DNA of 64,000 bases from Treponema sp. (GTDB lineage: Bacteria > Spirochaetota > Spirochaetia > Treponematales > Treponemataceae). Below are positions 8,175 through 52,749 of the stretch, piece by piece. The stretch is from contig JAKSTG010000015.1 in assembly GCA_024402695.1 (NCBI GenBank), forward strand, positions 4,142 through 68,141, read 5' to 3'. Numbering within the stretch: position 1 is the stretch's first letter; each line of letters starts with the position of its first letter. The notes below the pieces were generated by a model. That model was given only the letters and a program-made list of their open reading frames with translations. It did no database searches and had not been told where the DNA came from. Both the position numbers and the translations under genes were made by a program.

Positions 8175-9335
8175 TTATTTTTCCATTTTTCCTTCAATAA
8201 CTTCTACGTCGTAAACTTCGTCTCCAGCTTCACGCATACGAATCATTTTTTTATGGTTGAAGAAGTATGTACCGAAGTCTGAAGAGTTTCCTGCGTTTAC
8301 TGTTCCGTGTGCAGTAACTTTGATTTCGTTTGCGAAAACTGTTTCAATGTTTGCATCAGCAAAGAGTTTTTCGATTTTCTTTGCATCTTTTGGGATTGTT
8401 GGGTCCAAATTATCTTTCTTTACTGTCTCAGCAAATCCGTAAAGGTCAGCGCGAGTTGCTTCTTTTTCACCGTTTCCGTCCAGGTCATATCTTTTTTCTG
8501 CTACGATATCAGCTGCAGATGGTCCACCGTATACCAGTTCAGTTCCGCTTGTTTTTTCATCACGTTTTGGCTGGTAAAGACCAATAATCTGTTTTCCGGC
8601 TTTTACTGGAACTTTGATTGTGTTGCCTTTTTTTACTTCAAGCTTTTTGAATACCATTGTGTCTGAAACAACGTAGCTTCCACCAACTTTGTTATTTTCT
8701 GCTGTATTACCGTCTTTGTCTGCTTTTGGATCCAGAGGCCAGATTTCTGTAATTGTGTAGTCACCGTTTGTGTAAACAGAGGTTGATACTGGTTCATCAT
8801 TTGTAATAGTAACAACACCAACTGGTGCAATTACTTCTGGGTATTTTTCAAGTTTTACTCTTGTAACACGTTCCTGGAATACTGCAAAACGTCCGCGAAC
8901 ATCATATTTTGTAAGGTCAAAAGCTTCTTTTTTTCCAGTTTCAGGATTTTTCTGACTTTTATTAGTTCCTTCCAGACGAGTGTAAAGAACTACAACTTTT
9001 GAAGCCTCATTAAAGAGTCCTTTGAAATCGAAACAAACATTTTTTTCATCATCAAGTTTAGCAACAGGCTGTTTATCAAGGACAATACCATTTTCATCTG
9101 TCCAAAGGAACCAACCGTTCTGCTTATTTTCAACATCAAATCCATCTTTTGGCATGAGGATTACACGACCTGAAATTGTATAGTCTGGATCTTTGCTAGT
9201 GAGTGAAGCTTTTGAAGTGTCATTAGCCCAAGATTTTCCATCATTTTTAAGAGCATCTTTTGCAAGCATGTCACATGATGCCAATCCCATAATCATTGCA
9301 GCAGCTGCAATAATAGTAATCAGTGTTTTCTTCAT
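8175..9335 (-). CDS. hypothetical lipoprotein
   Basis: Starts MKKTLITIIAAAAMIMGLASC, with a lipobox. No family recognised. Confidence 0.75.
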   Translation of the reverse strand: MKKTLITIIAAAAMIMGLASCDMLAKDALKNDGKSWANDTSKASLTSKDPDYTISGRVILMPKDGFDVENKQNGWFLWTDENGIVLDKQPVAKLDDEKNVCFDFKGLFNEASKVVVLYTRLEGTNKSQKNPETGKKEAFDLTKYDVRGRFAVFQERVTRVKLEKYPEVIAPVGVVTITNDEPVSTSVYTNGDYTITEIWPLDPKADKDGNTAENNKVGGSYVVSDTMVFKKLEVKKGNTIKVPVKAGKQIIGLYQPKRDEKTSGTELVYGGPSAADIVAEKRYDLDGNGEKEATRADLYGFAETVKKDNLDPTIPKDAKKIEKLFADANIETVFANEIKVTAHGTVNAGNSSDFGTYFFNHKKMIRMREAGDEVYDVEVIEGKMEK

Positions 9336-9444
9336 AAAATTTTCTCCTAATTAATTATGAAAGTAATAATATCTGTATTATATCAATTATCTCTAATATG
9401 TCTAGAGAATTGGGGATTTTTTTATAATATGAACATTTTTTATA

Positions 9445-11043
9445 TTAAAAAAGTTTTCTGCATACATTTTCTCCATCCATTGCAGAGCTTACAATGCCAC
9501 CGGCATAGCCGCTTCCTTCCCCGCAAGGGTAAAGGCCGGGAAGTTCCGGGCATTCAAGGCTTTCTTTGTCCCTGAGGATTCTGACGGGAGTACTGGTTCT
9601 GGTTTCCATGGCAATCATAAGGGCGTCGTCACAGATGTAGCCTTTCATGTTGCGGTCAAAGTTTTTGAAGCCCTGGCGCAGGCGGTCTGCAATTGACGAA
9701 GGAATCCACTGGTCCAGACGGGATGAAACAATGCCTGGTGTGTAGCTGGTTTTTGGGAATTCTTCTGACTTTCTTCTATACATAAAGTCAGTCATCATCT
9801 GGGCGGGAGCTTTCTGGCCTTCGCCTGCGTTTTTTGTAAGCTTTTCCAGGTGGTCGCGGAAGTAAAGTCCAGCAAGGGCAGGGCAGCCTTCTTTTTTTGC
9901 CCGTTCAGTAAAGGTTTGCGGAATATCTTCAGGCCTTGTTTCCACAACTATGGCCGCATTGGACCACAGACTGTTGCGGTTCTTGTTGCTCATGCCGTTT
10001 ACGACAATTTCATCAGGGCCTGTCTGGCTTGGAACAACAAAGCCACCTGGACACATGCAGAAGCTGTAAACGCCGCGGTCTTCAACCTGGGTTACAAGGC
10101 GGTATTCTGCTGCCCCAAGATTTTCGGCTTTTTCAGATTTTCCGTGGAACTGAATTGAATCGATAATCTTTCTTGGGTGCTCAACGCGTACCCCAACGGC
10201 AAAAGTTTTGGCTTCAAGAGAGGCAGGGCTTGTTTCCGCAATCATTCTGTAAATGTCGCTGGCGCTGTGGCCTGTGGCAAGAACGACGGCGTCTCCTTTG
10301 AAGGATTTTGTTTCTCTTGTGTAAAGATCAAGGGCTGTAACCCCGGTAACCTTTTTGTTTTCTATAATCAGCTCAGTAACTTTTGTGTTGAAGTGGAATT
10401 CGCCGCCCAGCTCAACAATCTTGTTTCTCATGTTCATGATGATCTGAGGCAAGGCGTCTGTCCCGATGTGAGGGTGGGCGTCTGTAAGGATTTTTGGATC
10501 GGCTCCGAAATTCACAAAGATTTTAAGAATTCTGGTGATGTTTCCGCGTTTGTTGCTGCGGGTATAAAGCTTTCCGTCTGAAAAAGTTCCGGCTCCACCT
10601 TCTCCAAAGCAGTAGTTGGAGTTTGAATCAACTGTCTGTTTTGTGGAGATTGCCGCAATGGTGCGTTTTCTTTCCGGGGCTGCTTCTCCCCGTTCAATAA
10701 TCACAGGTTTTATGCCTTTTTCCAGCAGAGTAAGGGCGCCGAAAAGGCCTGCAGGGCCGGAACCAACAATAATGGCAGTTTTATGGCCGTCTGCTTTTTT
10801 CCATTCCGGCAGTTTATCTTCATCATTTTCGGATATATCTTCTCCGATAAAAACGCTATACTTAATATGGAGTTTTAAGCCTCCGTGGCGGGCATCTACA
10901 GATTTCTTTTCCTGAACGTATTTTACGTCCTCTTTCTGAAAGTCGATGCGTTTTGCGTTCAATTCGCGGAAAATCAGTTTTCTGATGAGGTCAGAGCTTT
11001 TTTCCTGTTCCGGTTTTAATGTGATAGAAACGGTTGTTTTCAT
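9445..11043 (-). CDS. FAD-dependent oxidoreductase (COG2509-like)
   Basis: Dinucleotide-binding motif IIVGSGPAGLFGAL in a 532-aa protein with the architecture of the uncharacterised FAD-dependent dehydrogenase family. Confidence 0.8.
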   Translation of the reverse strand: MKTTVSITLKPEQEKSSDLIRKLIFRELNAKRIDFQKEDVKYVQEKKSVDARHGGLKLHIKYSVFIGEDISENDEDKLPEWKKADGHKTAIIVGSGPAGLFGALTLLEKGIKPVIIERGEAAPERKRTIAAISTKQTVDSNSNYCFGEGGAGTFSDGKLYTRSNKRGNITRILKIFVNFGADPKILTDAHPHIGTDALPQIIMNMRNKIVELGGEFHFNTKVTELIIENKKVTGVTALDLYTRETKSFKGDAVVLATGHSASDIYRMIAETSPASLEAKTFAVGVRVEHPRKIIDSIQFHGKSEKAENLGAAEYRLVTQVEDRGVYSFCMCPGGFVVPSQTGPDEIVVNGMSNKNRNSLWSNAAIVVETRPEDIPQTFTERAKKEGCPALAGLYFRDHLEKLTKNAGEGQKAPAQMMTDFMYRRKSEEFPKTSYTPGIVSSRLDQWIPSSIADRLRQGFKNFDRNMKGYICDDALMIAMETRTSTPVRILRDKESLECPELPGLYPCGEGSGYAGGIVSSAMDGENVCRKLF

Positions 11044-18322: not shown

Positions 18323-18411
18323 GAGGGGGCTGTCCCCTTTGACGGATATTGCAGAGGGGACAGACCCCTTTGTTTTATGACGTTACAATGCAGAGGGGAC
18401 AGACCCATTTG
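18323..18411. repeat. REP-like cluster 1 (3 copies)
   Basis: 18323-18341 is GAGGGGGCTGTCCCCTTTG (variant). 18352-18372 is CAGAGGGGACAGACCCCTTTG (F). 18391-18411 is CAGAGGGGACAGACCCATTTG (F variant). Confidence 0.9.
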
Positions 18412-37715: not shown

Positions 37716-38642
37716 ATGATTATTCTTGAAACAATTATCCCGGTTTTCGTATTGATTTTTCTGGGATTCATTTTGAAACGTTCAGGTCTTTTGAAGGACG
37801 AAGGCATCGCTGTAATCAAAAAACTTTGCTGCAATGTATTTCTTCCTGTAATGGCTTTTGACTGTCTTATTCACGGAAGCTATTCTAGAGATTCTCTGCT
37901 TCTTATTGGACTTGAGCTTTTCATGCTTTTTGCCGCTTTCGGAATTGGATTTCTTTTCAAGCCCTTATTTGATGAAAAGGTTCGCGGTTATGTTCCTTAT
38001 GCCATGACTACTTATGAAGGCGGACTTTTCGGCTGGGCCCTTATTACCATTGCTGTAGGTAAAGAAAATCTTTTCTATATTGTCAGCATGGATATTTTCT
38101 CGGGAGTCTTTGTGTTTACCATCATGGCAACTGGACTGAAGATGCTTTCCGGCCAGCAGATGACAAAAAAAGAAATCATCAAATCGATCTGTCTGAATCC
38201 TGTAAACATTTCTGTTGTGCTGGGATTTTTGGGAGCAGCTTTCGGATTGGGCGATTTAATAGACAAATCTAACTTCAGCAGTGTTTATACAAAGCTCACA
38301 GATTTCTTTATTCAGCCAATGTCACCGATGATTTTGCTTTGCATCGGTTCAGGACTTGTCTTTGACTGGGCAGTTCTTAAGAAAGGATTAAAACTTGCAG
38401 GTCTCCGTTACGGACTTCAGGTTGTGCTTTGTGTTATTGTCCTTTTTGTTATTTACAAAACAATCGGTTTGAACCCGGTTCTTAAAAAATCTCTTCTGAT
38501 TTATTTCTTTGTTCCTACATCCTTCCTGCTTTCCATGTATGCAGAAGAAAAGGAATCAGTTGAGTTTACGTCGTCAGTATTGTCACTTGAAATCCTTATT
38601 TCACTGATTATTTATACTATTATTACTATTTTTGTTGCATAG
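37716..38642 (+). CDS. AEC-family (auxin efflux carrier-like) membrane transporter
   Basis: The 308-aa protein has about 10 TM helices and starts MIILETIIPVFVLIFLGF, typical of this family. The TAG stop (38640-38642) overlaps the first REP copy. Confidence 0.8.
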   Translation: MIILETIIPVFVLIFLGFILKRSGLLKDEGIAVIKKLCCNVFLPVMAFDCLIHGSYSRDSLLLIGLELFMLFAAFGIGFLFKPLFDEKVRGYVPYAMTTYEGGLFGWALITIAVGKENLFYIVSMDIFSGVFVFTIMATGLKMLSGQQMTKKEIIKSICLNPVNISVVLGFLGAAFGLGDLIDKSNFSSVYTKLTDFFIQPMSPMILLCIGSGLVFDWAVLKKGLKLAGLRYGLQVVLCVIVLFVIYKTIGLNPVLKKSLLIYFFVPTSFLLSMYAEEKESVEFTSSVLSLEILISLIIYTIITIFVA

Positions 38643-38679
38643 GGGTCTGTCCCCTCTGCACAGGGGTCTGTCCCCTATG
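38641..38679. repeat. REP-like cluster 2 (2 tandem copies, R orientation)
   Basis: 38641-38658 is AGGGGTCTGTCCCCTCTG. 38662-38679 is AGGGGTCTGTCCCCTATG. The period is 21 bp. Confidence 0.9.
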
Positions 38680-38687
38680 GAGTTAAA

Positions 38688-39461
38688 ATGAAAAACAAAC
38701 AGAGAAACGAACTTGCAGTATGCGGAATGTCTGCAGTAAAAAAACTTGAAAAGAAGCACAGCGATAGAATTCAGCGTCTTTACTTTACAGAAAAGAATGC
38801 ACCTCTTTTCGGAGGGCTTTGCAAGACTCTTGCAAAGAACAAAAGACCTTACAATATGGTGAAGGATGAGAAAGAACTGGAAAAACTGGCAGGTACAGTC
38901 CATCATCAGGGGGTTGTAGCCATGATCGATTTCCCTGAACTTACGCAGATTGATTCAGATATTATCCAGAATTGGGTTGAAAACAAGGAAGATGCTGTTT
39001 TTTTGGATCATATCGGAAATGCCAACAACTTTGGCGCCATCGTTCGTTCTGCGGTTTTCTTCGGAATCAAGAACATTATTATCCCTATGGATGAGGGACA
39101 GACCTTCATTACTACCAGTTCTTACCGAGTTGCGGAAGGGGGAATGGAATATGTGAATATTTACACTGTCGCCAATCCTGAAAAACTGCTGGCAGCTCTT
39201 AACGGAAAGATGTGCAAGATCGGGACATCACTTAAGGCTAAGAAAGATGTGAGTCAGATCAGAAAATCCGCAGGGGACAGACCCCTCCTTGTTATTTTGG
39301 GAAATGAAGAACATGGAATCAGCCGTGAAGTGGAAAAACTCTGTGACGAACTGGTGATTATTCCTTTTAGCGGTATGTCAGAAGGTTTCAAAGAACCTCT
39401 TGTAGAATCTCTCAACGTGGCTCAGGCCGCTTCGGTGATTTTCTATGAGATTATGAAATAG
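38688..39461 (+). CDS. TrmH/SpoU-family RNA 2'-O-methyltransferase
   Basis: SpoU substrate-binding N-terminus and the SpoU motifs NNFGAIVRSA, LVILGNEEHGIS and SLNVAQAASVIFYE. Confidence 0.9.
   Translation: MKNKQRNELAVCGMSAVKKLEKKHSDRIQRLYFTEKNAPLFGGLCKTLAKNKRPYNMVKDEKELEKLAGTVHHQGVVAMIDFPELTQIDSDIIQNWVENKEDAVFLDHIGNANNFGAIVRSAVFFGIKNIIIPMDEGQTFITTSSYRVAEGGMEYVNIYTVANPEKLLAALNGKMCKIGTSLKAKKDVSQIRKSAGDRPLLVILGNEEHGISREVEKLCDELVIIPFSGMSEGFKEPLVESLNVAQAASVIFYEIMK
39271..39288 (+). repeat. REP-like unit inside the TrmH-like CDS
   Basis: CAGGGGACAGACCCCTCC contains 15 consecutive nt identical to the repeat consensus (AGGGGACAGACCCCT). Here it is read as A-G-D-R-P-L. Confidence 0.7.
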
Positions 39462-40053: not shown

Positions 40054-40161
40054 AGGGGGCAGATTGAAAAAGGGGACAGACCCCTTGGAAATACATTTCA
40101 ATGGGGACAGCCCCCTTGCGCTTTGATAACCGAGGGAAAAAATAGGGGTCTGTCCCCTCTG
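40054..40161. repeat. REP-like cluster 3 (3 copies plus one degenerate)
   Basis: 40067-40086 is AAAAGGGGACAGACCCCTT (F). 40101-40118 is ATGGGGACAGCCCCCTT (F variant). 40143-40161 is TAGGGGTCTGTCCCCTCTG (R). There is a degenerate AAGGGGGCAGAT at 40054. Confidence 0.9.
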
Positions 40162-45365: not shown

Positions 45366-45415
45366 AAGGGGTCTGTCCCCTCTGTTATAACAGTAACAGA
45401 GGGGACAGACCCCTT
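45366..45415 (+). terminator. inverted REP pair forming the intrinsic terminator of the TRAP operon
   Basis: AAGGGGTCTGTCCCCTCTGTTA, loop TAACAG, then TAACAGAGGGGACAGACCCCTT followed by a 6-T run. This gives a perfect 22-bp stem built from one R copy and one F copy. Confidence 0.8.
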
Positions 45416-45508: not shown

Positions 45509-46258
45509 TTAAGCTTTTGAGATTATTGTTCTAGGAAAACCGGTTATTCTACTGATTTGAGAGATTGAGAAGTGATGTTCTTTTAGGAGATGAAGCTGCG
45601 TTATTTGTTCATTTAAGGGAAAGGTTTTTATTATATTTAGGTTTGTTATGTTAAGTAAATTTTGAATAATTAGTTTTGCTCTGTCATCGCTATAAAATGG
45701 TTTATTTTCATATTCCATATATTCTTGCTTATCATAAGCGTTAAGAAACGTATAAATTGCATTTTTACTTCCAAATATGGAATAAAGAAAGTCTGTTTTT
45801 ATTGTTACGGGATTGTTTGCTTGTGTCAGTTCTTTGTAACTGCTCCATATATAATCCTGCATATTGCAGATTTTTGCTTTTTCTGGATTCTTGAGAATAT
45901 AACGTAATACATTTTTCAGATAAATTTCATCTTCTACAGGTTCACTTTTGAACCTTCCCTGGAAAAGATGCCCACTGCAATCATATTTATGATTAAAAAA
46001 ATATACATAGCTGTTTGCCAGTTTCTGAACAAACAGGCTGAGGTCTTTTTTGGGTGTGTTCCCGAGCAAAATATGCACATGGTTTTGCATGAGACAATAG
46101 GCGTAGATGTGAATTTCAAGCTGATTTGCATACTTACGTATCCGGTTAATGAAAAAATGCCGGTCAGCATCATCATAGAAAATCGATTGTTTGTTATTGC
46201 CCCGCATGATTATATGATAGATCTGCGATCTTGCTTCTTTTCTGGGTTTTCTAGCCAT
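45509..46258 (-). CDS. IS200/Y1 HUH transposase-like protein (RAYT-like, COG1943) with a C-terminal HTH
   Basis: HUH motif in YAYCLMQNHVHILLG, catalytic Tyr region VLRYILKNPEKAKI, and GHLFQGRFKS between them. The C-terminal SISQISRITGFPRTIISKA resembles a DnaA-C-type HTH. Confidence 0.85.
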   Translation of the reverse strand: MARKPRKEARSQIYHIIMRGNNKQSIFYDDADRHFFINRIRKYANQLEIHIYAYCLMQNHVHILLGNTPKKDLSLFVQKLANSYVYFFNHKYDCSGHLFQGRFKSEPVEDEIYLKNVLRYILKNPEKAKICNMQDYIWSSYKELTQANNPVTIKTDFLYSIFGSKNAIYTFLNAYDKQEYMEYENKPFYSDDRAKLIIQNLLNITNLNIIKTFPLNEQITQLHLLKEHHFSISQISRITGFPRTIISKA

Positions 46259-46334: not shown

Positions 46335-46350
46335 AAAAGGGGACAGACCT
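46335..46350. repeat. degenerate REP-like copy upstream of the RAYT gene
   Basis: AAAAGGGGACAGACCT, in F orientation, with the 3' half of the palindrome eroded. Confidence 0.6.
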
Positions 46351-46438
46351 ATCTTTTACATCGTTCAGATTTCCTTGACGATTTTACTACTTGGACTTAA
46401 AATATATTGAAGTTCTAAAGTGGGGTTTCATTTTTTCC

Positions 46439-46969
46439 ATGAACAGTTCGACCTTGAATAATCAGATAATCAACAGGCTTTTAACAAGCTTTAAGTCCTA
46501 CTACAATATTATTCCATTTGATGGGGAACCATATCTTGTAGCTCGCTGTGATTATTTTGAAAAATCAGAACGATTCATGGTATCCAAAAAAGCGAATCTC
46601 TGGAGTGCTAATGCAGAAGAGTTTATTTATCTTTTCTATGCACCGGAACTTACAGAACAAATCTATGATGAATGCATGAAATATGTAGCAGAAGCATGGC
46701 CAAAAGAAGCCCATATTGGACCTGACCACATGTACACATATGTTACCCCAATTTTTGTGTGCGATTCTTATGAAAAAGCTGTTGCAAAGAAAATAAAAAA
46801 GTGCAGAATCTACAAATCATTCAAATTTTCTTTTCATGGATGGATGGAATACCATACAGCCTTAGTATGCTTTAAGGCTGAGGATGAGCGAAAAAATTGG
46901 ACATTGCTCAGTAATTCCCGTGGCAACTGTGTAAAGAAAATGATTTTGAAAGTGCTGGATATAAAATAG
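46439..46969 (+). CDS. hypothetical protein
   Basis: The ORF is open from 46391 (TTG). The first ATG is at 46439. There is no good SD at either site, and no family was recognised. The gene lies between REP copies in an AT-rich stretch. Confidence 0.55.
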   Translation: MNSSTLNNQIINRLLTSFKSYYNIIPFDGEPYLVARCDYFEKSERFMVSKKANLWSANAEEFIYLFYAPELTEQIYDECMKYVAEAWPKEAHIGPDHMYTYVTPIFVCDSYEKAVAKKIKKCRIYKSFKFSFHGWMEYHTALVCFKAEDERKNWTLLSNSRGNCVKKMILKVLDIK

Positions 46970-47022
46970 GCACATGCAGTCTGCGTTGCAGACTTCAATA
47001 TACTGGGATTTCTTAATTTAGA

Positions 47023-47041
47023 TAGGGGTCTGTCCCCTCTG
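47023..47041. repeat. REP-like copy (R) just upstream of cstA
   Basis: TAGGGGTCTGTCCCCTCTG, 28 nt before the cstA ATG. Confidence 0.9.
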
Positions 47042-47068
47042 AAATAAGAATTCCTTAGGAGATTTTTT

Positions 47069-48775
47069 ATGAACACATTAGTGTTACTTATTATTTGTGT
47101 AGCCGTACTTGCTTGCGGTTACATTTTCTATGGTCGCTGGCTCTGCAAACAGTGGGGTGTAGGCGAATCAACAGAACCAACACCAGCTCACGCATTGGAA
47201 GACGGTGTTGACTACGTTCCAGCTAAAGCTCCAGTTCTGATGGGACACCACTTCTCATCAATCGCCGGAGCTGGTCCTATCACAGGTCCTATCGGTGCTG
47301 CTATGTTCGGATGGCTTCCAGCTACAATCTGGATCCTCATTGGTGGTATTTTCTTCGGTGGTGTACATGACTTTGGTGCTCTTTTCGCATCTCTCCGTCA
47401 TAAGGGACAGTCTATCGGTGAAATCATCAACGTAAATATGGGTCGTCGTGCAAAACGTCTGTTCATCATTTTCGCTTATGTTACACTTATTCTGGTTGTT
47501 GCAGCTTTCGCTTCAATCGTAGCTGGTACATTCAAATCAACATATGTTAATGGTGTTCTTGATAAGGCCGCTTCTGCAGCAAACGCTTCAGTTGCTATGG
47601 TTTCTCTCCTGTTCATCGTAGTTGCCATTATTTTCGGTTTCTTAGTATACCGTCGCAATGCTCCACTGGCTGTTTCTTCAGTTTGTGGTGTTATCGCTAT
47701 CATCCTTTGTATGGTAATCGGTATGAAATGGCATCCAATCTACCTTTCAAACACAACATGGATGATTGTAGTTGGTATTTATATCGCTATTGCTTCTGTT
47801 ACTCCTGTTTGGATTCTCCTTCAGCCACGTGACTACCTGTCTTCATTCCTTCTTTACGCTATGCTGGCAGTTGCTCTTATTGGTGTTGTTGGTGCTCATC
47901 CAAATATTGATAACGCTTCATTCCCAATGTTTGCTACAGTAAAAGGAACTCCAATGTTCCCAGTTCTGTTTACAACTATTGCTTGTGGTGCTATTTCTGG
48001 TTTCCACTCACTGGTTTCTTCAGGAACAACATCAAAACAGCTGGATAAAGAAACACATGCAAGACCAATCGCTTACGGTGGAATGCTTCTGGAATGTGTA
48101 CTTGCAGTAATCACAATCTGTGCTATTGCTTACGCTCGCCAGACAGGTCACACAAAAGGTGCTACAGACATCTTCGCTGGTGGTATTGCTGCTATGGTTG
48201 CAAAAATCCCTGGATGTGCAGGTGCTGAAAATGTTATCTACACACTCCTTATCCTTACATACTCTGCATTCTGTCTTACATCTCTTGATACAGCTACACG
48301 TCTTGCTCGCTTCATGTTCCAGGAATTCTGGCTTGAACCAGGACAGACTGTTGCTGACATCAAATCTGGATGGAAGAAAGTTGTTACAAACAAATACTTT
48401 GCTACAATCCTTACTGTAGTTCTTGGTATTGCTCTTGGTATGACAGGTTGGTCAAAAGTTTGGGGACTCTTCGGTGCTGCTAACCAGCTCCTGGCAGGTC
48501 TCGGACTTCTGGCAATTGCAACATGGCTTGGAAACATTGGAAAGAACAACAAAATGTTCATGTTCCCAATGGCTTTCATGATGGTTGTTACAATTTCTTC
48601 ACTTATTATTACAATCATCAACCAGTGCAAGCTTATCGCTAAAGGTGGTGCAGGATGGGGTCCATACGCTCAGGTTATCATCGCTGCATTCCTCGTAGTT
48701 CTGGCAGTTATCCTCGTTATTGAAGGTGTTCAGACACTTACAAAAGCTGCAAAAGCAAAAAAAGCTAATGCGTAA
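47069..48775 (+). CDS. cstA: carbon starvation protein A (peptide/pyruvate transporter family)
   Basis: The 568-aa polytopic protein contains HHFSSIAGAGPITGP and GGVHDF, motifs typical of CstA. Confidence 0.92.
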   Translation: MNTLVLLIICVAVLACGYIFYGRWLCKQWGVGESTEPTPAHALEDGVDYVPAKAPVLMGHHFSSIAGAGPITGPIGAAMFGWLPATIWILIGGIFFGGVHDFGALFASLRHKGQSIGEIINVNMGRRAKRLFIIFAYVTLILVVAAFASIVAGTFKSTYVNGVLDKAASAANASVAMVSLLFIVVAIIFGFLVYRRNAPLAVSSVCGVIAIILCMVIGMKWHPIYLSNTTWMIVVGIYIAIASVTPVWILLQPRDYLSSFLLYAMLAVALIGVVGAHPNIDNASFPMFATVKGTPMFPVLFTTIACGAISGFHSLVSSGTTSKQLDKETHARPIAYGGMLLECVLAVITICAIAYARQTGHTKGATDIFAGGIAAMVAKIPGCAGAENVIYTLLILTYSAFCLTSLDTATRLARFMFQEFWLEPGQTVADIKSGWKKVVTNKYFATILTVVLGIALGMTGWSKVWGLFGAANQLLAGLGLLAIATWLGNIGKNNKMFMFPMAFMMVVTISSLIITIINQCKLIAKGGAGWGPYAQVIIAAFLVVLAVILVIEGVQTLTKAAKAKKANA

Positions 48776-48799
48776 TTGAAATTATCGTTTAGACGATAA

Positions 48800-48853: not shown

Positions 48854-48947
48854 CAGAGGGGACAGCCCCCTAAGAGAAATAAAACCAGAAAACTAGGAGT
48901 CTGTCCCCTCTGACTTGCTTTCTTTATGTAGGGGTCTGTCCCCCTTT
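48854..48947. repeat. REP-like cluster 4 (3 copies)
   Basis: 48854-48872 is CAGAGGGGACAGCCCCCT (F variant). 48894-48912 is TAGGAGTCTGTCCCCTCTG (R variant). 48929-48947 is TAGGGGTCTGTCCCCCTTT (R). Confidence 0.9.
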
Positions 48948-49038
48948 TATTTATCTCCCATCACTTAACATCTGACCATATAAAAATATATCGATTTTGG
49001 TTATATTACTAAGGTCAGTATTATGACATGATAAGGCC

Positions 49039-50046
49039 ATGAAGAGAAATGTATCAGGTGTAGTGGCAGCCTTAAGTGCCGCTTTGATCGTGTTTTCTGG
49101 GTGTTCCGGAAGAGAAAAAAATGAAGTGCTTCACGTTTATTCCATTATTCATGAAGAAGAAACAGAGGCACTTTGCAATTTGTTTACAGAAAAAACAGGA
49201 ATAAAGGTTGAGTTCCTTCGCGCCACAACGGGTGAACTGGTGAACCGTGTTATTTCAGAGAAAAGTGCTCCGCAGGCTGATATTCTTCTTGGTGGGGCTT
49301 CAAATTATCACATCAATCTTGCAAAAGAAGGATGTCTGGAACCTTATGCATCGTCTCTTGCAAAAGACCTTCCAGAATATGCAAAAAGTTCAGATGATAC
49401 CTGGACCGGATTCTGCGTACTGACCCTCGGAATCGGAATCAACAAGGCCCGCTTTGAAGAAAAGTTCCCGGGTGTTGAATATCCAAAAACTTGGGAAGAT
49501 CTTGTAAATCCAGCATTTAAGGATGAAATCGTAATGACTAATCCAGTTGCATCAAGCACAGCTTATCTTTTTGTTCAGAATCAGCTTCAGCGCCTTGGAT
49601 GGGATGCAGGATGGGACTATCTTTCAGATCTTTCCCAGCTGGTAGGCCAGTTTCCTGATTCAGGTTCGGCACCTCCAAAATTGATCGGAACCGGGGAATA
49701 TGCCTTGGGAGTGGCTTATCTTCATGCTCTTTCAAAATATAATGCACAGGGATTTGACATTCAGCTGGTGGCTCCCAAAGATTCTGTAGGGGATGTTGAT
49801 TGTGTTTCAATCATGAAAAACTGCGGAAATCTTAAGGGCGCTCAGAAGTTTGTTGATTTCATTCTTTCTGCTGAAGCCGAAACTTTGATGTCATCAATTG
49901 ATTTTACAATTCCTGTAAACAGCGAAGCCAAGGCTCCAGCTGGTGCGATTCCTGTTTCAGAAATCAGCCTTATTGATTACGATGCAAAAAAAGCAAGTTC
50001 AGAAAAGGATTCTGTAATCGCAAAATGGACAGAACTGGTAAAATAG
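49039..50046 (+). CDS. ABC transporter substrate-binding lipoprotein (Fe3+/AfuA-FbpA-like class)
   Basis: Lipobox VFSGC and a periplasmic binding fold of the iron(III)/thiamine type (LHVYS...EFLRATTGEL). Confidence 0.8.
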   Translation: MKRNVSGVVAALSAALIVFSGCSGREKNEVLHVYSIIHEEETEALCNLFTEKTGIKVEFLRATTGELVNRVISEKSAPQADILLGGASNYHINLAKEGCLEPYASSLAKDLPEYAKSSDDTWTGFCVLTLGIGINKARFEEKFPGVEYPKTWEDLVNPAFKDEIVMTNPVASSTAYLFVQNQLQRLGWDAGWDYLSDLSQLVGQFPDSGSAPPKLIGTGEYALGVAYLHALSKYNAQGFDIQLVAPKDSVGDVDCVSIMKNCGNLKGAQKFVDFILSAEAETLMSSIDFTIPVNSEAKAPAGAIPVSEISLIDYDAKKASSEKDSVIAKWTELVK

Positions 50047-51692
50047 AAAAAAAGAAAACCGCGTTTTTTCCTGCTGTAACTGTACTCTGGAGCTGCGCGG
50101 TACTTTTTCTTGCAGTATTTATTCTTTTTCCTCTTGTCTGCGTCTTTGCAAAAATCAGGCTTTCAGACCTGGCAGAGATTTTTACTGCTGTCAGATTCAG
50201 AAAAACAATTCTGAATACTGTCCTTGAATGTATCTGTTCAACAACTCTTTCTGTTCTGACAGGCTATATCTATGCTTACGCCGTAACCTTCGGTCGTCTG
50301 CCTTTCAGGAAGTTTTTTTCATTTATCCCTGTGCTTCATCTGATTACACCTCCTTTCGTAGGTGGTTTGGCTTTCATTCTTCTTCTTGGAAGACAGGGCC
50401 TCATCACAAAGACAATTCTTCACCTTGATGTTTCTTTATATGGATTTCCAGGTCTGCTTATTGCCCAGACTCTTTGTTTCTTTCCCCTGGCGTATCTGAT
50501 GTGCAAGGAAAGTTTTGAGGCTCTTAACCGAAATCTTGTTGACGGGGCAGTAAGTCTTGGGGCTTCCAAACTGAAGATATTTTTCCGCGTGATTTTTCCC
50601 CTTACGTTTCCAACTCTGCTTTCGAGCTTCCTTTTTATAGCAGTTTCAGTCTTAAGTGATTTCGGAAACCCTATGATCGTAGGCGGAAGATTCAAGGTTC
50701 TGGCTGTAGAAATCTATACTCAGCTTACAGGGTGGATGAATGCAGGAACTTCTGCCGCCCTTGGACTGGTTCTTCTGATTCCATCCCTTGGTCTGTTTTT
50801 CCTCCAGAACAGGCTTTTCAAAAAACAGTCAAAGAAGACTGCCATTCTTGGGGGAAAAGGCAGTGCCGTAAAAAACGGAGGAAATTCTTCTTCTGAACCG
50901 GTTTTCAGAAATTCTGTTTTTGCAGATATTCTTCTTTTTTTGTTCGTGACCTTCATAGCTCTGGCCGTTCTTCTTCAATTTGTTTCCATTATTGCTGGAA
51001 GTTTCCAGAAACTTTGGGGAATAGATACCACCTTTACTTTTGAGCATGTCAAAAAAACATTCAGATATGGAAAAGAATTCCGGAATTCAGTTCTCTTTGC
51101 ACTTTCGGCTTCTACTTTGTCTGCGTTGATTTCTCTTTTTGTCTCTTTCTGTGTGCACAGAACAGGCTCCGGAAGACTTGTCGGGAAGAGTTTTGTTGAT
51201 TCCCTTATCCAGCTTCCTTCTGCAATTCCGGGGTCACTTTTTGGACTTGCTTTTTCCATTACCGCCAATATGCTGCATATAAAGGCGCCGCGTTTTCTTA
51301 TATGTATGGTCATCACTGTGGCTTTCATGCCTTTTTCGTACCGTATTGTAACTTCGACTTTTTCGCAGATCCGACAGACTCTCGATGAAGGGGGACAGAC
51401 CCTTGGGGCCGGATTCATGAAAATTCTTGGAAGAATACTTGTTCCTTTATCAAAAGGCGGTATCATGTCCGGCTGGACCTACAACTTCGCAAGGGGAGTA
51501 GGAACCTTAAGTTCCGTGATATTCCTTGTAAGCTTCAATACACCTTTATGCTCTGTCCGTATCCTGAATCTGGCGGAGCAGGGGGACTGGGGACGGGCAG
51601 CCGCCATGGCTGTAGAACTGACCTTAATCACTTTTGCTATTATTCTTGGAGGAAACCTGATTTTTAGGAAGAGAGGAGATTCAAATGAATGA
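50025..51692 (+). CDS. ABC transporter permease, duplicated (FbpB/AfuB-like)
   Basis: The 555-aa protein has two MetI-like halves, each with an EAA-type loop. Confidence 0.85.
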   Translation: MDRTGKIEKKKTAFFPAVTVLWSCAVLFLAVFILFPLVCVFAKIRLSDLAEIFTAVRFRKTILNTVLECICSTTLSVLTGYIYAYAVTFGRLPFRKFFSFIPVLHLITPPFVGGLAFILLLGRQGLITKTILHLDVSLYGFPGLLIAQTLCFFPLAYLMCKESFEALNRNLVDGAVSLGASKLKIFFRVIFPLTFPTLLSSFLFIAVSVLSDFGNPMIVGGRFKVLAVEIYTQLTGWMNAGTSAALGLVLLIPSLGLFFLQNRLFKKQSKKTAILGGKGSAVKNGGNSSSEPVFRNSVFADILLFLFVTFIALAVLLQFVSIIAGSFQKLWGIDTTFTFEHVKKTFRYGKEFRNSVLFALSASTLSALISLFVSFCVHRTGSGRLVGKSFVDSLIQLPSAIPGSLFGLAFSITANMLHIKAPRFLICMVITVAFMPFSYRIVTSTFSQIRQTLDEGGQTLGAGFMKILGRILVPLSKGGIMSGWTYNFARGVGTLSSVIFLVSFNTPLCSVRILNLAEQGDWGRAAAMAVELTLITFAIILGGNLIFRKRGDSNE

Positions 51693-52749
51693 AGAAATAC
51701 TGAAACTTGAAGACATATCTTTTTCTTATGGAAAAAACGCGATTTTGAAATCTTTTTCTCTGTCTGTTGAAAAAGGATCTTTCACAACTCTTCTTGGTCC
51801 GTCAGGCTGTGGAAAAACAACTCTTTTAAGGCTTGTTGCAGGGTTTCTGAAGCCTGATGAAGGACGTATTCTCATAAACGGAAGGGATGTGTCGGATGTT
51901 CCTGTAGAAGAAAGACGGATTGGCTTTGTTTTTCAGGATTATGCCTTGTTTCCTCATATGACTGTAAAGGAAAATCTGCTTTTTGGATTCAGTCATAAGG
52001 AAAAGAAGTCCCAGCTTTCCCGTGTGGAGGAGATTTCTGCCTCTCTTGAACTTTATGAGCTTCTGGAAAGATATCCACATGAGCTTTCCGGAGGTCAGCA
52101 GCAACGTGTCGCTCTTGGCCGCACTCTCATGATGAAACCTGAAATCATCCTTATGGATGAACCTTTGTCATCTCTTGATGCGAAACTACGGCTTAAGGTT
52201 CGGGAAGAGCTTCAGGAAATACAGAGAAACATCGGAATCACCACAATTTATGTTACTCATGACCAGGAAGAAGCCCTTTCGCTTTCCTCAAAAATAGCTG
52301 TAATGAATGAAGGAAAGCTCCTTCAGCATGATACTCCGGAAAACGTTTATTTCAATCCTTCTGATAAAGAGACTGCTGAGCTTACAGGACAGGCAAACTT
52401 CCTCAAAATGGGCGGAAAACTGGTTATGGTTCGCCCTGAATGGTTTTCTGTGGATACGGAACTGGAAAAAGATAGCCAGAACAAGATCAAAGGAACTGTT
52501 GTTTCATCTTCATTTCTGGGGGCTGTCGTGCGCTACAAGCTTGAATGTGCTGAAAGCCTGAAAGGTTATGTGACTGCAGATATCCGTAAAGCAAAGGGGA
52601 CAGACCCCTCGCAATCGAAATCCCTTTCAAAGGGGACAGACCCCTCTGCCGCTAAATCCAGATCAGAGGGGACAGACCCCCTTGCATCCCTTCAACCCGG
52701 CGAAAAAGTTATTTTGACAATTGATTCTTCTGTCTGCTTTGATAATTGA
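51685..52749 (+). CDS. ABC transporter ATP-binding protein (FbpC/PotA-like) with a repeat-derived insertion in the C-terminal TOBE-like domain
   Basis: Walker A GPSGCGKTT, signature LSGGQQQR, Walker B IILMDEPLSSLD. The C-terminal domain is interrupted by KGTDPSQSKSLSKGTDPSAAKSRSEGTDPLAS. Confidence 0.9.
   Translation: MNEEILKLEDISFSYGKNAILKSFSLSVEKGSFTTLLGPSGCGKTTLLRLVAGFLKPDEGRILINGRDVSDVPVEERRIGFVFQDYALFPHMTVKENLLFGFSHKEKKSQLSRVEEISASLELYELLERYPHELSGGQQQRVALGRTLMMKPEIILMDEPLSSLDAKLRLKVREELQEIQRNIGITTIYVTHDQEEALSLSSKIAVMNEGKLLQHDTPENVYFNPSDKETAELTGQANFLKMGGKLVMVRPEWFSVDTELEKDSQNKIKGTVVSSSFLGAVVRYKLECAESLKGYVTADIRKAKGTDPSQSKSLSKGTDPSAAKSRSEGTDPLASLQPGEKVILTIDSSVCFDN
52594..52683 (+). repeat. 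REP-like cluster 5: three tandem F copies in frame inside the ATPase CDS
   Basis: The GGGGACAGACCCC cores start at 52596, 52632 and 52668, exactly 36 bp apart. Each is read as G-T-D-P. Confidence 0.9.

Follow-up and report, generated by a model that had tools for sequence, protein, structure and literature searches.

Repetitive extragenic palindromes (REPs) can, in spite of their name, be found inside genes. Intragenic REPs carrying a GTAG or a CGTC tag were described in Opitutus terrae, Rickettsia conorii, Thauera and other bacteria (Di Nocera, De Gregorio and Rocco 2013, PMC3733652). More than half of them are dimers or groups that encode 20–30 amino acids, clusters encode 43–82 amino acids, and the authors judged them to be probably neutral inserts in linkers or loops (PMC3733652). 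Here we describe a similar case in a 64,000-nucleotide stretch of DNA from Treponema sp. (contig JAKSTG010000015.1 of assembly GCA_024402695.1, hereafter the window), where an array of three REP units is read in frame through the gene of an ATP-binding cassette (ABC) importer ATPase. For Spirochaetes the same authors list only CGTC repeats, without a dedicated transposase (PMC3733652), and our searches of a literature library for the Treponema motif, or for a Treponema system of REPs and REP-associated tyrosine transposases (RAYTs), found no report.

The Treponema family resembles the REPs of the 2013 survey in that its members are short hairpins with an asymmetric terminal tag, are mostly intergenic with a minority lying wholly within open reading frames (ORFs), and are linked to a RAYT-like gene flanked by REPs, as the GTAG type is to RAYT genes. 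It differs from them by its CARA tag, its length of 18 nt, its 5-bp stem and its host, gut Treponema; what stands out in comparison are direct arrays with gene-specific periods that are multiples of three nucleotides (3n), a copy number that is polymorphic between strains, and a high intragenic share. With the REP/RAYT systems of Enterobacteria and Pseudomonas, and with REP doublets forming hairpins (REPINs), it shares a single-copy, vertically inherited Y1/HUH gene flanked by REPs, the occurrence of the repeats as singlets, inverted doublets and clusters, and positions that are stable between relatives. Those REPs, however, carry the GTAG tag and hardly ever lie within genes, and, unlike their RAYTs, the Treponema protein of ∼249 amino acids has a C-terminal extension and scores under the NCBIfam RAYT cutoff.

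Palindromic repeats inserted in frame in genes also include the Rickettsia palindromic elements (RPEs), the BRE of Bordetella, which about nine genes carry, and BOX (reviewed in PMC3184786). RPEs are regarded as selfish palindromes that lie in frame in many unrelated genes, adding surface peptides while function is kept (Ogata et al. 2000, as summarized in PMC3184786 and PMC3733652); for RPE-4 and RPE-6, which are of the CGTC type, no dedicated transposase is known (PMC3733652). Like an RPE, the Treponema array is in frame in a conserved protein, is absent from the orthologues and occupies a structurally permissive site. But RPEs are ∼105–146 bp long, usually single, unrelated in sequence and found in obligate intracellular alpha-proteobacteria, whereas the Treponema unit is 18 nt long, forms arrays, has a linked Y1 gene and is not a member of the RPEs. 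BRE and the pneumococcal BOX, RUP and SPRITE elements are longer, similar to miniature inverted-repeat transposable elements and of other origin, and no tandem arrays in coding sequence are described among them (PMC3184786).

Two other types of repeats deserve comparison. Coding variable-number tandem repeats (VNTRs), such as the mycobacterial interspersed repetitive units (MIRU-VNTR) of Mycobacterium, have in common with the array that their tandem units keep the frame and vary in copy number between strains through slippage or recombination; but the VNTR unit is local sequence, while the Treponema array is seeded by a dispersed REP, of which the core has stayed identical and the rest of the unit has diverged. 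The DNA uptake sequences (DUS) of Neisseria and the uptake signal sequences (USS) of Haemophilus are over-represented motifs that are recognised by the competence machinery and accumulate by substitution, without insertion or deletion (indel). A few Treponema copies similarly add no length, but many are length-adding insertions or arrays. The Treponema array is thus a known kind of event; what is new is the tag, the host group and the conspicuous tandem arrays of 3n period.

The array within the ATPase gene

The 13-nt core, GGGGACAGACCCC, is present without mismatch at 52596-52608, 52632-52644 and 52668-52680, on the + strand throughout and with a spacing of 36 bp. Tandem Repeats Finder (TRF) reports the same period, with 2.5 copies over 52592-52680, and the 354-amino-acid ORF (51685-52749, + strand) is open across the array, which it reads as ...RKA KGTDPSQSKSLS KGTDPSAAKSRS EGTDPLAS LQPGEKV.... 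An earlier note on this DNA had pointed to three cores in one orientation, a 36-bp period and an uninterrupted ORF, all of which are borne out by the sequence, the ORF translation and TRF. The segment extends from 52592 to 52681 (about residues 303–332) and is made of unit 1 (52592-52627), unit 2 (52628-52663) and unit 3 (52664-52681), which consists of tag and core only. Core 1 is read as GTDP, and its unit is the one absent from a two-unit allele; core 2 is exact; core 3 follows a full CAGA tag and is replaced by GGGGACAGCCCCC in the strain of locus L001. Tryptic peptides encoded by the array are GTDPSQSK, GTDPSAAK and SEGTDPLASLQPGEK.

That the segment is an insertion follows from comparison with orthologues. 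A protein search over 5.8 billion sequences returned one near-identical cluster, then Treponema orthologues of 317–345 amino acids and 52–70% identity. In 22 out of 22 aligned orthologues, ∼30 residues are missing at exactly the array site, both flanks align and no homologous segment is found, as the earlier note had expected for an insert. At the DNA level, a clean gap of ∼90 bp faces the array in three syntenic loci found via the ATPase orthologues (L002, L003 and that of genome UBA1747, L119). The proposal of a loop insertion of about 36 residues therefore holds for its internal position, since orthologues align on both sides, but not for its size: relative to orthologues, the net insert is 30 amino acids, or 90 bp (36 + 36 + 18 bp). 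A C-terminal extension or a gene fusion is ruled out, since the last 20 residues align with the C-termini of orthologues, with which the ATPase shares the conserved tail ...G.KV.L.I..SVCF beyond the insert. As the UBA1747 ATPase (P0012, 329 amino acids) is without the insert and the near-identical strains have it, the insertion took place after the split from UBA1747 and before the 99%-identical strains diverged. We also considered a CAGA at the homologous UBA1747 position as a possible target site, and dropped it because the alignment there is too loose.

The host gene encodes an ATPase of the FbpC/PotA/MalK class, as judged from Pfam, AlphaFold and Foldseek. Pfam ABC_tran matches residues 21-161 (E = 6.4e-38), and the Walker A (GPSGCGKT), signature (LSGGQQQR), Walker B (LMDEP) and H-loop (THD) motifs are invariant in the orthologue alignment, so that all the catalytic motifs are intact. 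TOBE_2 matches residues 247-290 with 31.3 bits (cutoff 21), but only over positions 1-40 of the 76 of the profile, ending just before the repeats: such a half-profile match is as expected of a domain split by an insert. The best NCBIfam equivalogs (PhnT2, PotA and FbpC-type) and all the others score under their cutoffs. In an AlphaFold2 model built on the orthologue alignment (mean predicted local distance difference test, pLDDT, 83.5), strands run through residues 238-346, and pLDDT falls below 50 for residues 305-332 alone, with confident beta-strands on either side (295-301 and 341-346). The best Foldseek match of the model is FbpC (9j4r_B, template modelling score, TM, 0.82/0.85), and the model superposes full-length on FbpC, PotA, CysA and MalK-type ATPases with TM of 0.75–0.85. 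The flanks of the array had been read as the two halves of a TOBE/MalK-type domain of an FbpC/PotA-class ATPase, and the partial TOBE_2 match and the fold matches support this; structure prediction likewise favours a disordered loop, one of the options put forward for the insert. In the model, the insert is probably a disordered loop that joins the last two strands of the C-terminal regulatory domain.

Another of these options was an effect of the array on mRNA stability, for which we find no support: folded as RNA, 52580-52700 does not exceed shuffled sequences in stability (z = −1.5), there are no terminator-like sites within the array beyond chance, and the window as a whole has no match to any Rfam family. 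A CRISPR-like nature of the array, or a native peptide repeat, is ruled out by the dispersion of the same core between genes on both strands. CRISPR arrays consist of 24–48-nt direct repeats with unique spacers of similar size, are non-coding and have cas genes nearby; here the repeat is 13–19 nt long, the units are three, they lie inside a conserved ORF, and the element is dispersed in both orientations.

The array is not peculiar to one assembly. The 90%-identity cluster holds five distinct protein sequences from separate assemblies, all in frame: the protein MCQ2597560.1 of an NCBI metagenome-assembled genome (MAG; Treponema sp.), which is identical to that of the window, and four from Logan assemblies. 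The Logan runs that carry the in-frame array are SRR17543910, SRR17543912 and SRR28408225, and single-nucleotide polymorphisms (SNPs) mark them as distinct strains. One such SNP, in locus L001 (99% DNA identity to the window), lies in the third core and gives the variant mentioned above, which is present elsewhere in the window too. Four of the five proteins are 354 amino acids long. The fifth (P0123, locus L121) has 342 amino acids and is without exactly unit 1, through a 36-bp deletion between 19-nt direct repeats, CAAAGGGGACAGACCCCTC; hence the array gains or loses whole units and its copy number is polymorphic. A metagenome scan with conserved ABC peptide patterns brought no further allele of this ATPase: among the matches listed there were distant ATPases of at most 54% identity.

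The ATPase gene is the last of an operon which also comprises, on the same strand, the genes of a substrate-binding protein (SBP; 49039-50046) and of a fused permease (50025-51692), both recognised from their ORFs and from the Pfam families at the syntenic loci (SBP_bac_1/6/8/11-type for the former); in the window, 25 nt separate the ATPase stop codon from the next gene. Upstream of the SBP gene, a block of ∼60 nt (∼48975-49035; ATCTGACCATATAAAAATATAT...TTGG.TATATTA...) is near-identical in UBA1747, in contrast to the remainder of the intergenic region, which has diverged; the block is a candidate promoter or operator of the operon. In UBA1747 (L119 10958-11556) an extra gene for a 137-amino-acid RF-1-domain protein, absent from the window, is convergent with the ATPase gene and overlaps its 3′ end; it adjoins a lineage-specific cluster of three REPs.

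The CARA-tagged family and its linked Y1 gene

With at most one mismatch, the window contains 19 copies of the 13-mer core, where shuffled sequence would give 0.02; none of 100 shuffles reaches this number. To define the unit we used the window and UBA1747, since neither had been chosen by the motif: the resulting unbiased flank profile of 25 copies is C19 A24 R23 A20 - GGGGACAGACCCC - T21. The element is thus 5′-CARA-GGGGACAGACCCC-T (also written CARA-GGGGACAGMCCCC), 18 nt in length, with an asymmetric tag on the 5′ side only and a T on the 3′ side. As single-stranded DNA (ssDNA), CAGAGGGGACAGACCCCT folds into a 5-bp stem, rich in G:C pairs, with a 5-nt loop (−4.8 kcal/mol, z = −3.4). All six frames of the unit are free of stop codons; the peptides of the sense frames (EGTDP, QRGQTP, RGDRP) are small, hydrophilic and Gly/Pro-rich, while antisense frames give Cys, Val and Leu.

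The element is dispersed at about one copy per 4–5 kb, and the copies of the window are mostly intergenic, on either strand (6 on + and 8 on −, hence without orientation bias), as singlets, inverted pairs and clusters of three. It thus has attributes of a REP: a hairpin unit, dispersed copies on both strands that are mainly intergenic, and a Y1/HUH gene flanked by the same repeats. Its CARA tag departs from the GTAG or CGTC by which the two described REP super-families are recognised. The array in the ATPase gene is built of this family.

The Y1 gene (45509..46258, − strand, 249 amino acids) encodes a RAYT-like Y1 (HUH) tyrosine transposase, a candidate for mobilising or maintaining the family. 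The protein matches Pfam Y1_Tnp (E = 1.6e-17) and contains both NHVHIL, an HUH motif, and RYILKNP, which includes a tyrosine; among NCBIfam models it scores best against NF047646, that of REP-associated tyrosine transposases (E = 5.8e-16), with 58.7 bits for a cutoff of 80, compared with 29 bits for the IS200 model, and a PDB sequence search gave no match. On one side of the gene, 3′ of both it and the DctM gene, lies an inverted REP pair (45368..45413) that is kept at the orthologous UBA1747 site; it forms a REPIN-like hairpin of 23 bp followed by a run of T, and its ssDNA fold has −27.3 kcal/mol (z = −11). On the other side, 5′ of the gene, is a degenerate core (GGGGACAGACCTA; 46339..46351, + strand), which is exact at the same site of UBA1747. 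All five Y1 homologues in the loci fetched, that of the window and four from other genomes, have REP cores within 60–220 bp. Homologues of ∼248 amino acids, labelled only 'transposase', are widespread in Treponema, most of them on one or few contigs. The physical linkage between REPs and Y1 gene is therefore a matter of observation, and in the lineage that has the REPs the gene is single-copy and vertically inherited; that the Y1 protein mobilises the REPs is what we infer, the indirect evidence being REP gains specific to one lineage (the ATPase array and the dimer in the UBA1747 permease) and the way gene and repeats are present or absent together in syntenic loci.

The syntenic loci agree with this linkage. 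In L002 and L003 the genes follow the order of the window, with an empty slot between the DctM and DUF8052 genes (L002 4911-4992; L003 4739-4813), and their syntenic ∼20 kb contain no REP core even at two mismatches. Two cores are present on another contig of the genome of L003 (L053), which makes this genome REP-poor rather than REP-free. In UBA1747, with ∼79% nucleotide identity to the window, an intact Y1 orthologue (72% identity) occupies the same slot, and 12 cores are found in 21 kb; window and UBA1747 have 12–16 cores over the syntenic 20 kb. UBA1747 has REP clusters at intergenic positions that it shares with the window; across the ∼21% nucleotide divergence of the two, the cores are almost unchanged and the spacers have diverged nearly to randomness. 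As a side observation, the DUF8052 and CstA genes of the window (46369-48777) are 89.8% identical to L003 4744-7136, while flanking genes are at 74–80%; judging by these identities, the segment may be a recombination tract.

The intergenic copies of the window further include a lone REP upstream of CstA (47025..47037, − strand), which has an orthologous copy in UBA1747, and three clusters of three: one between CstA and the SBP gene (48858..48943), where UBA1747 keeps the cores at orthologous positions and the spacers have diverged, and two recognised by core matches, at 40072..40157 and, downstream of rpsG, at 18325..18407. Two direct REPs 21 bp apart (38642..38675, − strand; core matches and TRF) lie in a 45-nt intergenic gap. 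Besides the array, a core is found within a SpoU/RlmB-like methyltransferase gene (38688-39461), at 39273..39285 on the + strand, where it is read as GDRP. The net length of the protein is unchanged: the L014 orthologue also has 257 amino acids, and ∼8 of 13 bases differ from the REP core at that spot, so the core appears, from this alignment, to stand in place of coding sequence of the same length. Similarly, by the Pfam profile, a histidine kinase (L016 4220-5548) has in its HisKA domain, at about amino acid 248, a core that adds no length. A match at 12 of 13 positions in the permease gene (GGGGACAGACCCT, 51391-51403) is part of the conserved EAA-loop motif DEGGQTLGAG, for which reason it is probably fortuitous and not a REP.

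REPs inside genes across the clade

A scan of 185,579 species genomes with the 17-mer CAGAGGGGACAGACCCC gave at least 115 loci. Among the matches listed, most belong to gut Treponema and other spirochaete MAGs, and those in unrelated taxa are nearly all single, at about the number expected by chance. When the window and the spirochaete loci listed are taken together, 66 of 220 cores (30%) lie in ORFs of at least 150 amino acids and ∼70% outside. In the window alone, the intragenic share is 4 of 16 cores. Roughly a quarter to a third of the cores sampled in the clade are thus intragenic, and the ATPase array is less exceptional than the earlier note had supposed from the premise that REPs are extragenic by definition; this premise was itself overstated, in view of the intragenic REPs and RPEs already documented (PMC3733652, PMC3184786).

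Coding frame leaves a clear mark on the intragenic copies. Same-orientation spacings of up to 60 bp are multiples of three in 18 of 19 intragenic cases (8 of 9 arrays), as compared to 6 of 22 intergenic cases (Fisher p = 1.6e-5). Since the unit is open in every frame, this excess is not a by-product of the way ORFs are defined; it results from selection that keeps the downstream frame, which implies that the host genes are functional. Orientation is also skewed: among the listed loci, 57 intragenic cores are sense and 9 antisense, the sense frames being EGTDP (28), QRGQTP (19) and RGDRP (10). A selective filter on the encoded peptide would account for this bias.

Elsewhere, the period of in-frame arrays differs from gene to gene (24, 27, 30, 33, 39 or 42 bp). 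The longest illustration is provided by a PfkB kinase (L031 1491-2594, − strand), the domain of which is split by seven units of 27 bp, adding ∼60 amino acids. Four units of 42 bp are found in a protein without Pfam match (L087 692-1861, − strand), three of 39 bp in a GH16 glycoside hydrolase (L091 3-1418), and two units each in an AroE-K-A fusion (L049, 30 bp), a DUF4015 protein (L047, 33 bp) and a DUF2400 protein (L061, 27 bp); an RluA-type synthase is a further host. Another protein without Pfam match (L009 1583-2695) has three units of 24 bp, for a gain of 16 amino acids, and its 90%-identical orthologue L035 has one, the two genes being exactly two 24-bp units apart. Finally, the permease gene of the same operon in UBA1747 (8264-9982) carries an in-frame inverted REP dimer (L119 9120-9165) which encodes ∼22 amino acids, DQRGLSPLVSLFKRGQTPLFQ; as the dimer is absent from the window, L002 and L003, it represents an independent intragenic gain. 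We did not retain the RluA or GDSL copies seen in several species as proof that intragenic cores are conserved, because the loci were selected by the exact 17-mer and the argument would be circular.

Origin and retention of the array

The explanation that we favour, with a probability of about 0.8, is that the 90-bp segment is selfish REP DNA that entered a coding sequence and was retained because it was harmless. Once the lineage had separated from that of UBA1747, one REP copy would have settled in the ATPase gene, arriving presumably by Y1-mediated ssDNA transposition. Slippage or unequal recombination between the identical 17–19-nt stretches of tag plus core could then have duplicated or deleted whole 36-bp units, with the three-unit allele of the window and the two-unit allele of another strain as the outcome. 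Selection purges lengths other than 3n, so that survivors are sense-oriented, 3n-long and located in loops. The product is an ATPase with intact catalytic motifs and an extra hydrophilic loop of ∼30 amino acids, probably disordered, of which the effect on function is most likely none or slight.

Several points weigh against this explanation. The neutrality of the loop is an assumption on our part. The score of the Y1 protein (58.7 bits) is under the NCBIfam RAYT cutoff of 80 and the protein has no PDB sequence match; the element, at 18 nt, is shorter than classical REPs (20–40 nt), with a tag that is neither GTAG nor CGTC; and the 30% intragenic share is biased, as the loci were chosen by the motif itself. 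Simple insertion does not account for those intragenic cores, in the SpoU and HisKA genes, that add no length. Moreover, units 1 and 2 have identical cores but tails of only ∼53% identity: if duplication gave rise to the units, selection or conversion must have kept the cores the same as the tails drifted, which hints at a constraint beyond neutrality. Intergenic cores are also kept at orthologous sites across ∼21% nucleotide divergence. Tail drift, core conservation at orthologous sites and cores without indel all point to constraint on the core or to its homogenisation, and leave room for a component of conversion or drive.

The other explanations may be weighed against the same data. That assembly produced the array spuriously, or that the array is the end of a pseudogene in decay, deserves mention because the source is a MAG and short-read MAGs can mis-assemble tandem repeats, but we give it almost no credit. 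The same in-frame array was recovered in an NCBI MAG and several Logan runs representing distinct strains, and none of these independent assemblies has a frameshift or stop, the outcome that the earlier note had named as the mark of a pseudogene; neither the catalytic motifs nor the C-terminal strand are damaged, and both are conserved; and the 3n rule is upheld across many genes. Besides, the longest exact repeat within the array is 19 nt, which is below the k-mer sizes commonly used by assemblers. A more serious possibility, though still an unlikely one, is that the insert is derived from REPs but useful, either as a regulatory loop (for trans-inhibition or partner binding) or as an RNA or DNA element of the operon (a pause or processing site, an mRNA stabiliser, a site for a REP-binding protein). 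The C-terminal domain mediates regulation in ATPases of the MalK, FbpC and ModC type, and the insert sits within this domain in a protein whose fold matches that family; it is kept in frame in at least five assemblies; and cores remain identical while their surroundings drift, in the array as well as at orthologous intergenic sites. On the other hand, copy number differs between near-identical strains, and the fold of the RNA, the search for terminators and the comparison with Rfam provide nothing in favour of an RNA element; the loop itself is predicted to be disordered. The same element also occurs in many unrelated enzymes, in all three sense frames, which argues against a protein-specific role, as was argued for other REPs (PMC3733652).

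Lastly, the motif could spread by a drive acting on the sequence itself, through conversion patches or biased uptake and recombination, as for DUS or USS, and not by Y1 transposition, the ATPase array being then a secondary tandem expansion. The replacement of equal coding length in the SpoU and HisKA genes would fit such a process, as would the conservation of cores at orthologous sites with diverged flanks, and the substantial intragenic fraction is reminiscent of uptake sequences. We nevertheless consider it very improbable: length is added in the ATPase (+30 amino acids), the PfkB kinase (∼+60), the UBA1747 permease (+22) and the L009 protein (+16), the element is a hairpin with an asymmetric tag, five out of five Y1 genes are tightly flanked by REPs, and in the syntenic loci REPs are present where Y1 is and absent where it is not, all of which is typical of REP/RAYT systems.

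If the insert is, as we favour, harmless selfish DNA, the locus offers a clean natural case in which selfish repeat DNA has become part of a working protein; it comes from a group, the uncultured gut Treponema of horses and other animals, for which REP/RAYT systems had not been described before. It leaves our knowledge of ABC transporters unchanged: its value lies chiefly in the clade-wide pattern and in the natural two-unit and three-unit alleles. With orthologues free of the insert, strains one unit apart and analogous 3n arrays in many enzymes of the clade, it is a usable model in which one can study how insertions are filtered by frame, orientation and loop position, and ask if the cores undergo active maintenance within genes. 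For annotation, it means that such arrays are real and are not to be 'corrected' as frameshifts or low-complexity artefacts; they could, in addition, serve as markers for strain typing. A bolder view, possible but doubtful at this point, is that the CARA-tagged REPs form an actively maintained, RAYT-linked engine which writes units into coding sequence, at times in exchange for an equal length with no indel, keeps the cores identical by conversion as the flanks drift, and seeds in-frame, copy-variable loops in housekeeping enzymes. If so, the family would supply new disordered protein segments across the genome, and with them strain-level variation in protein length.

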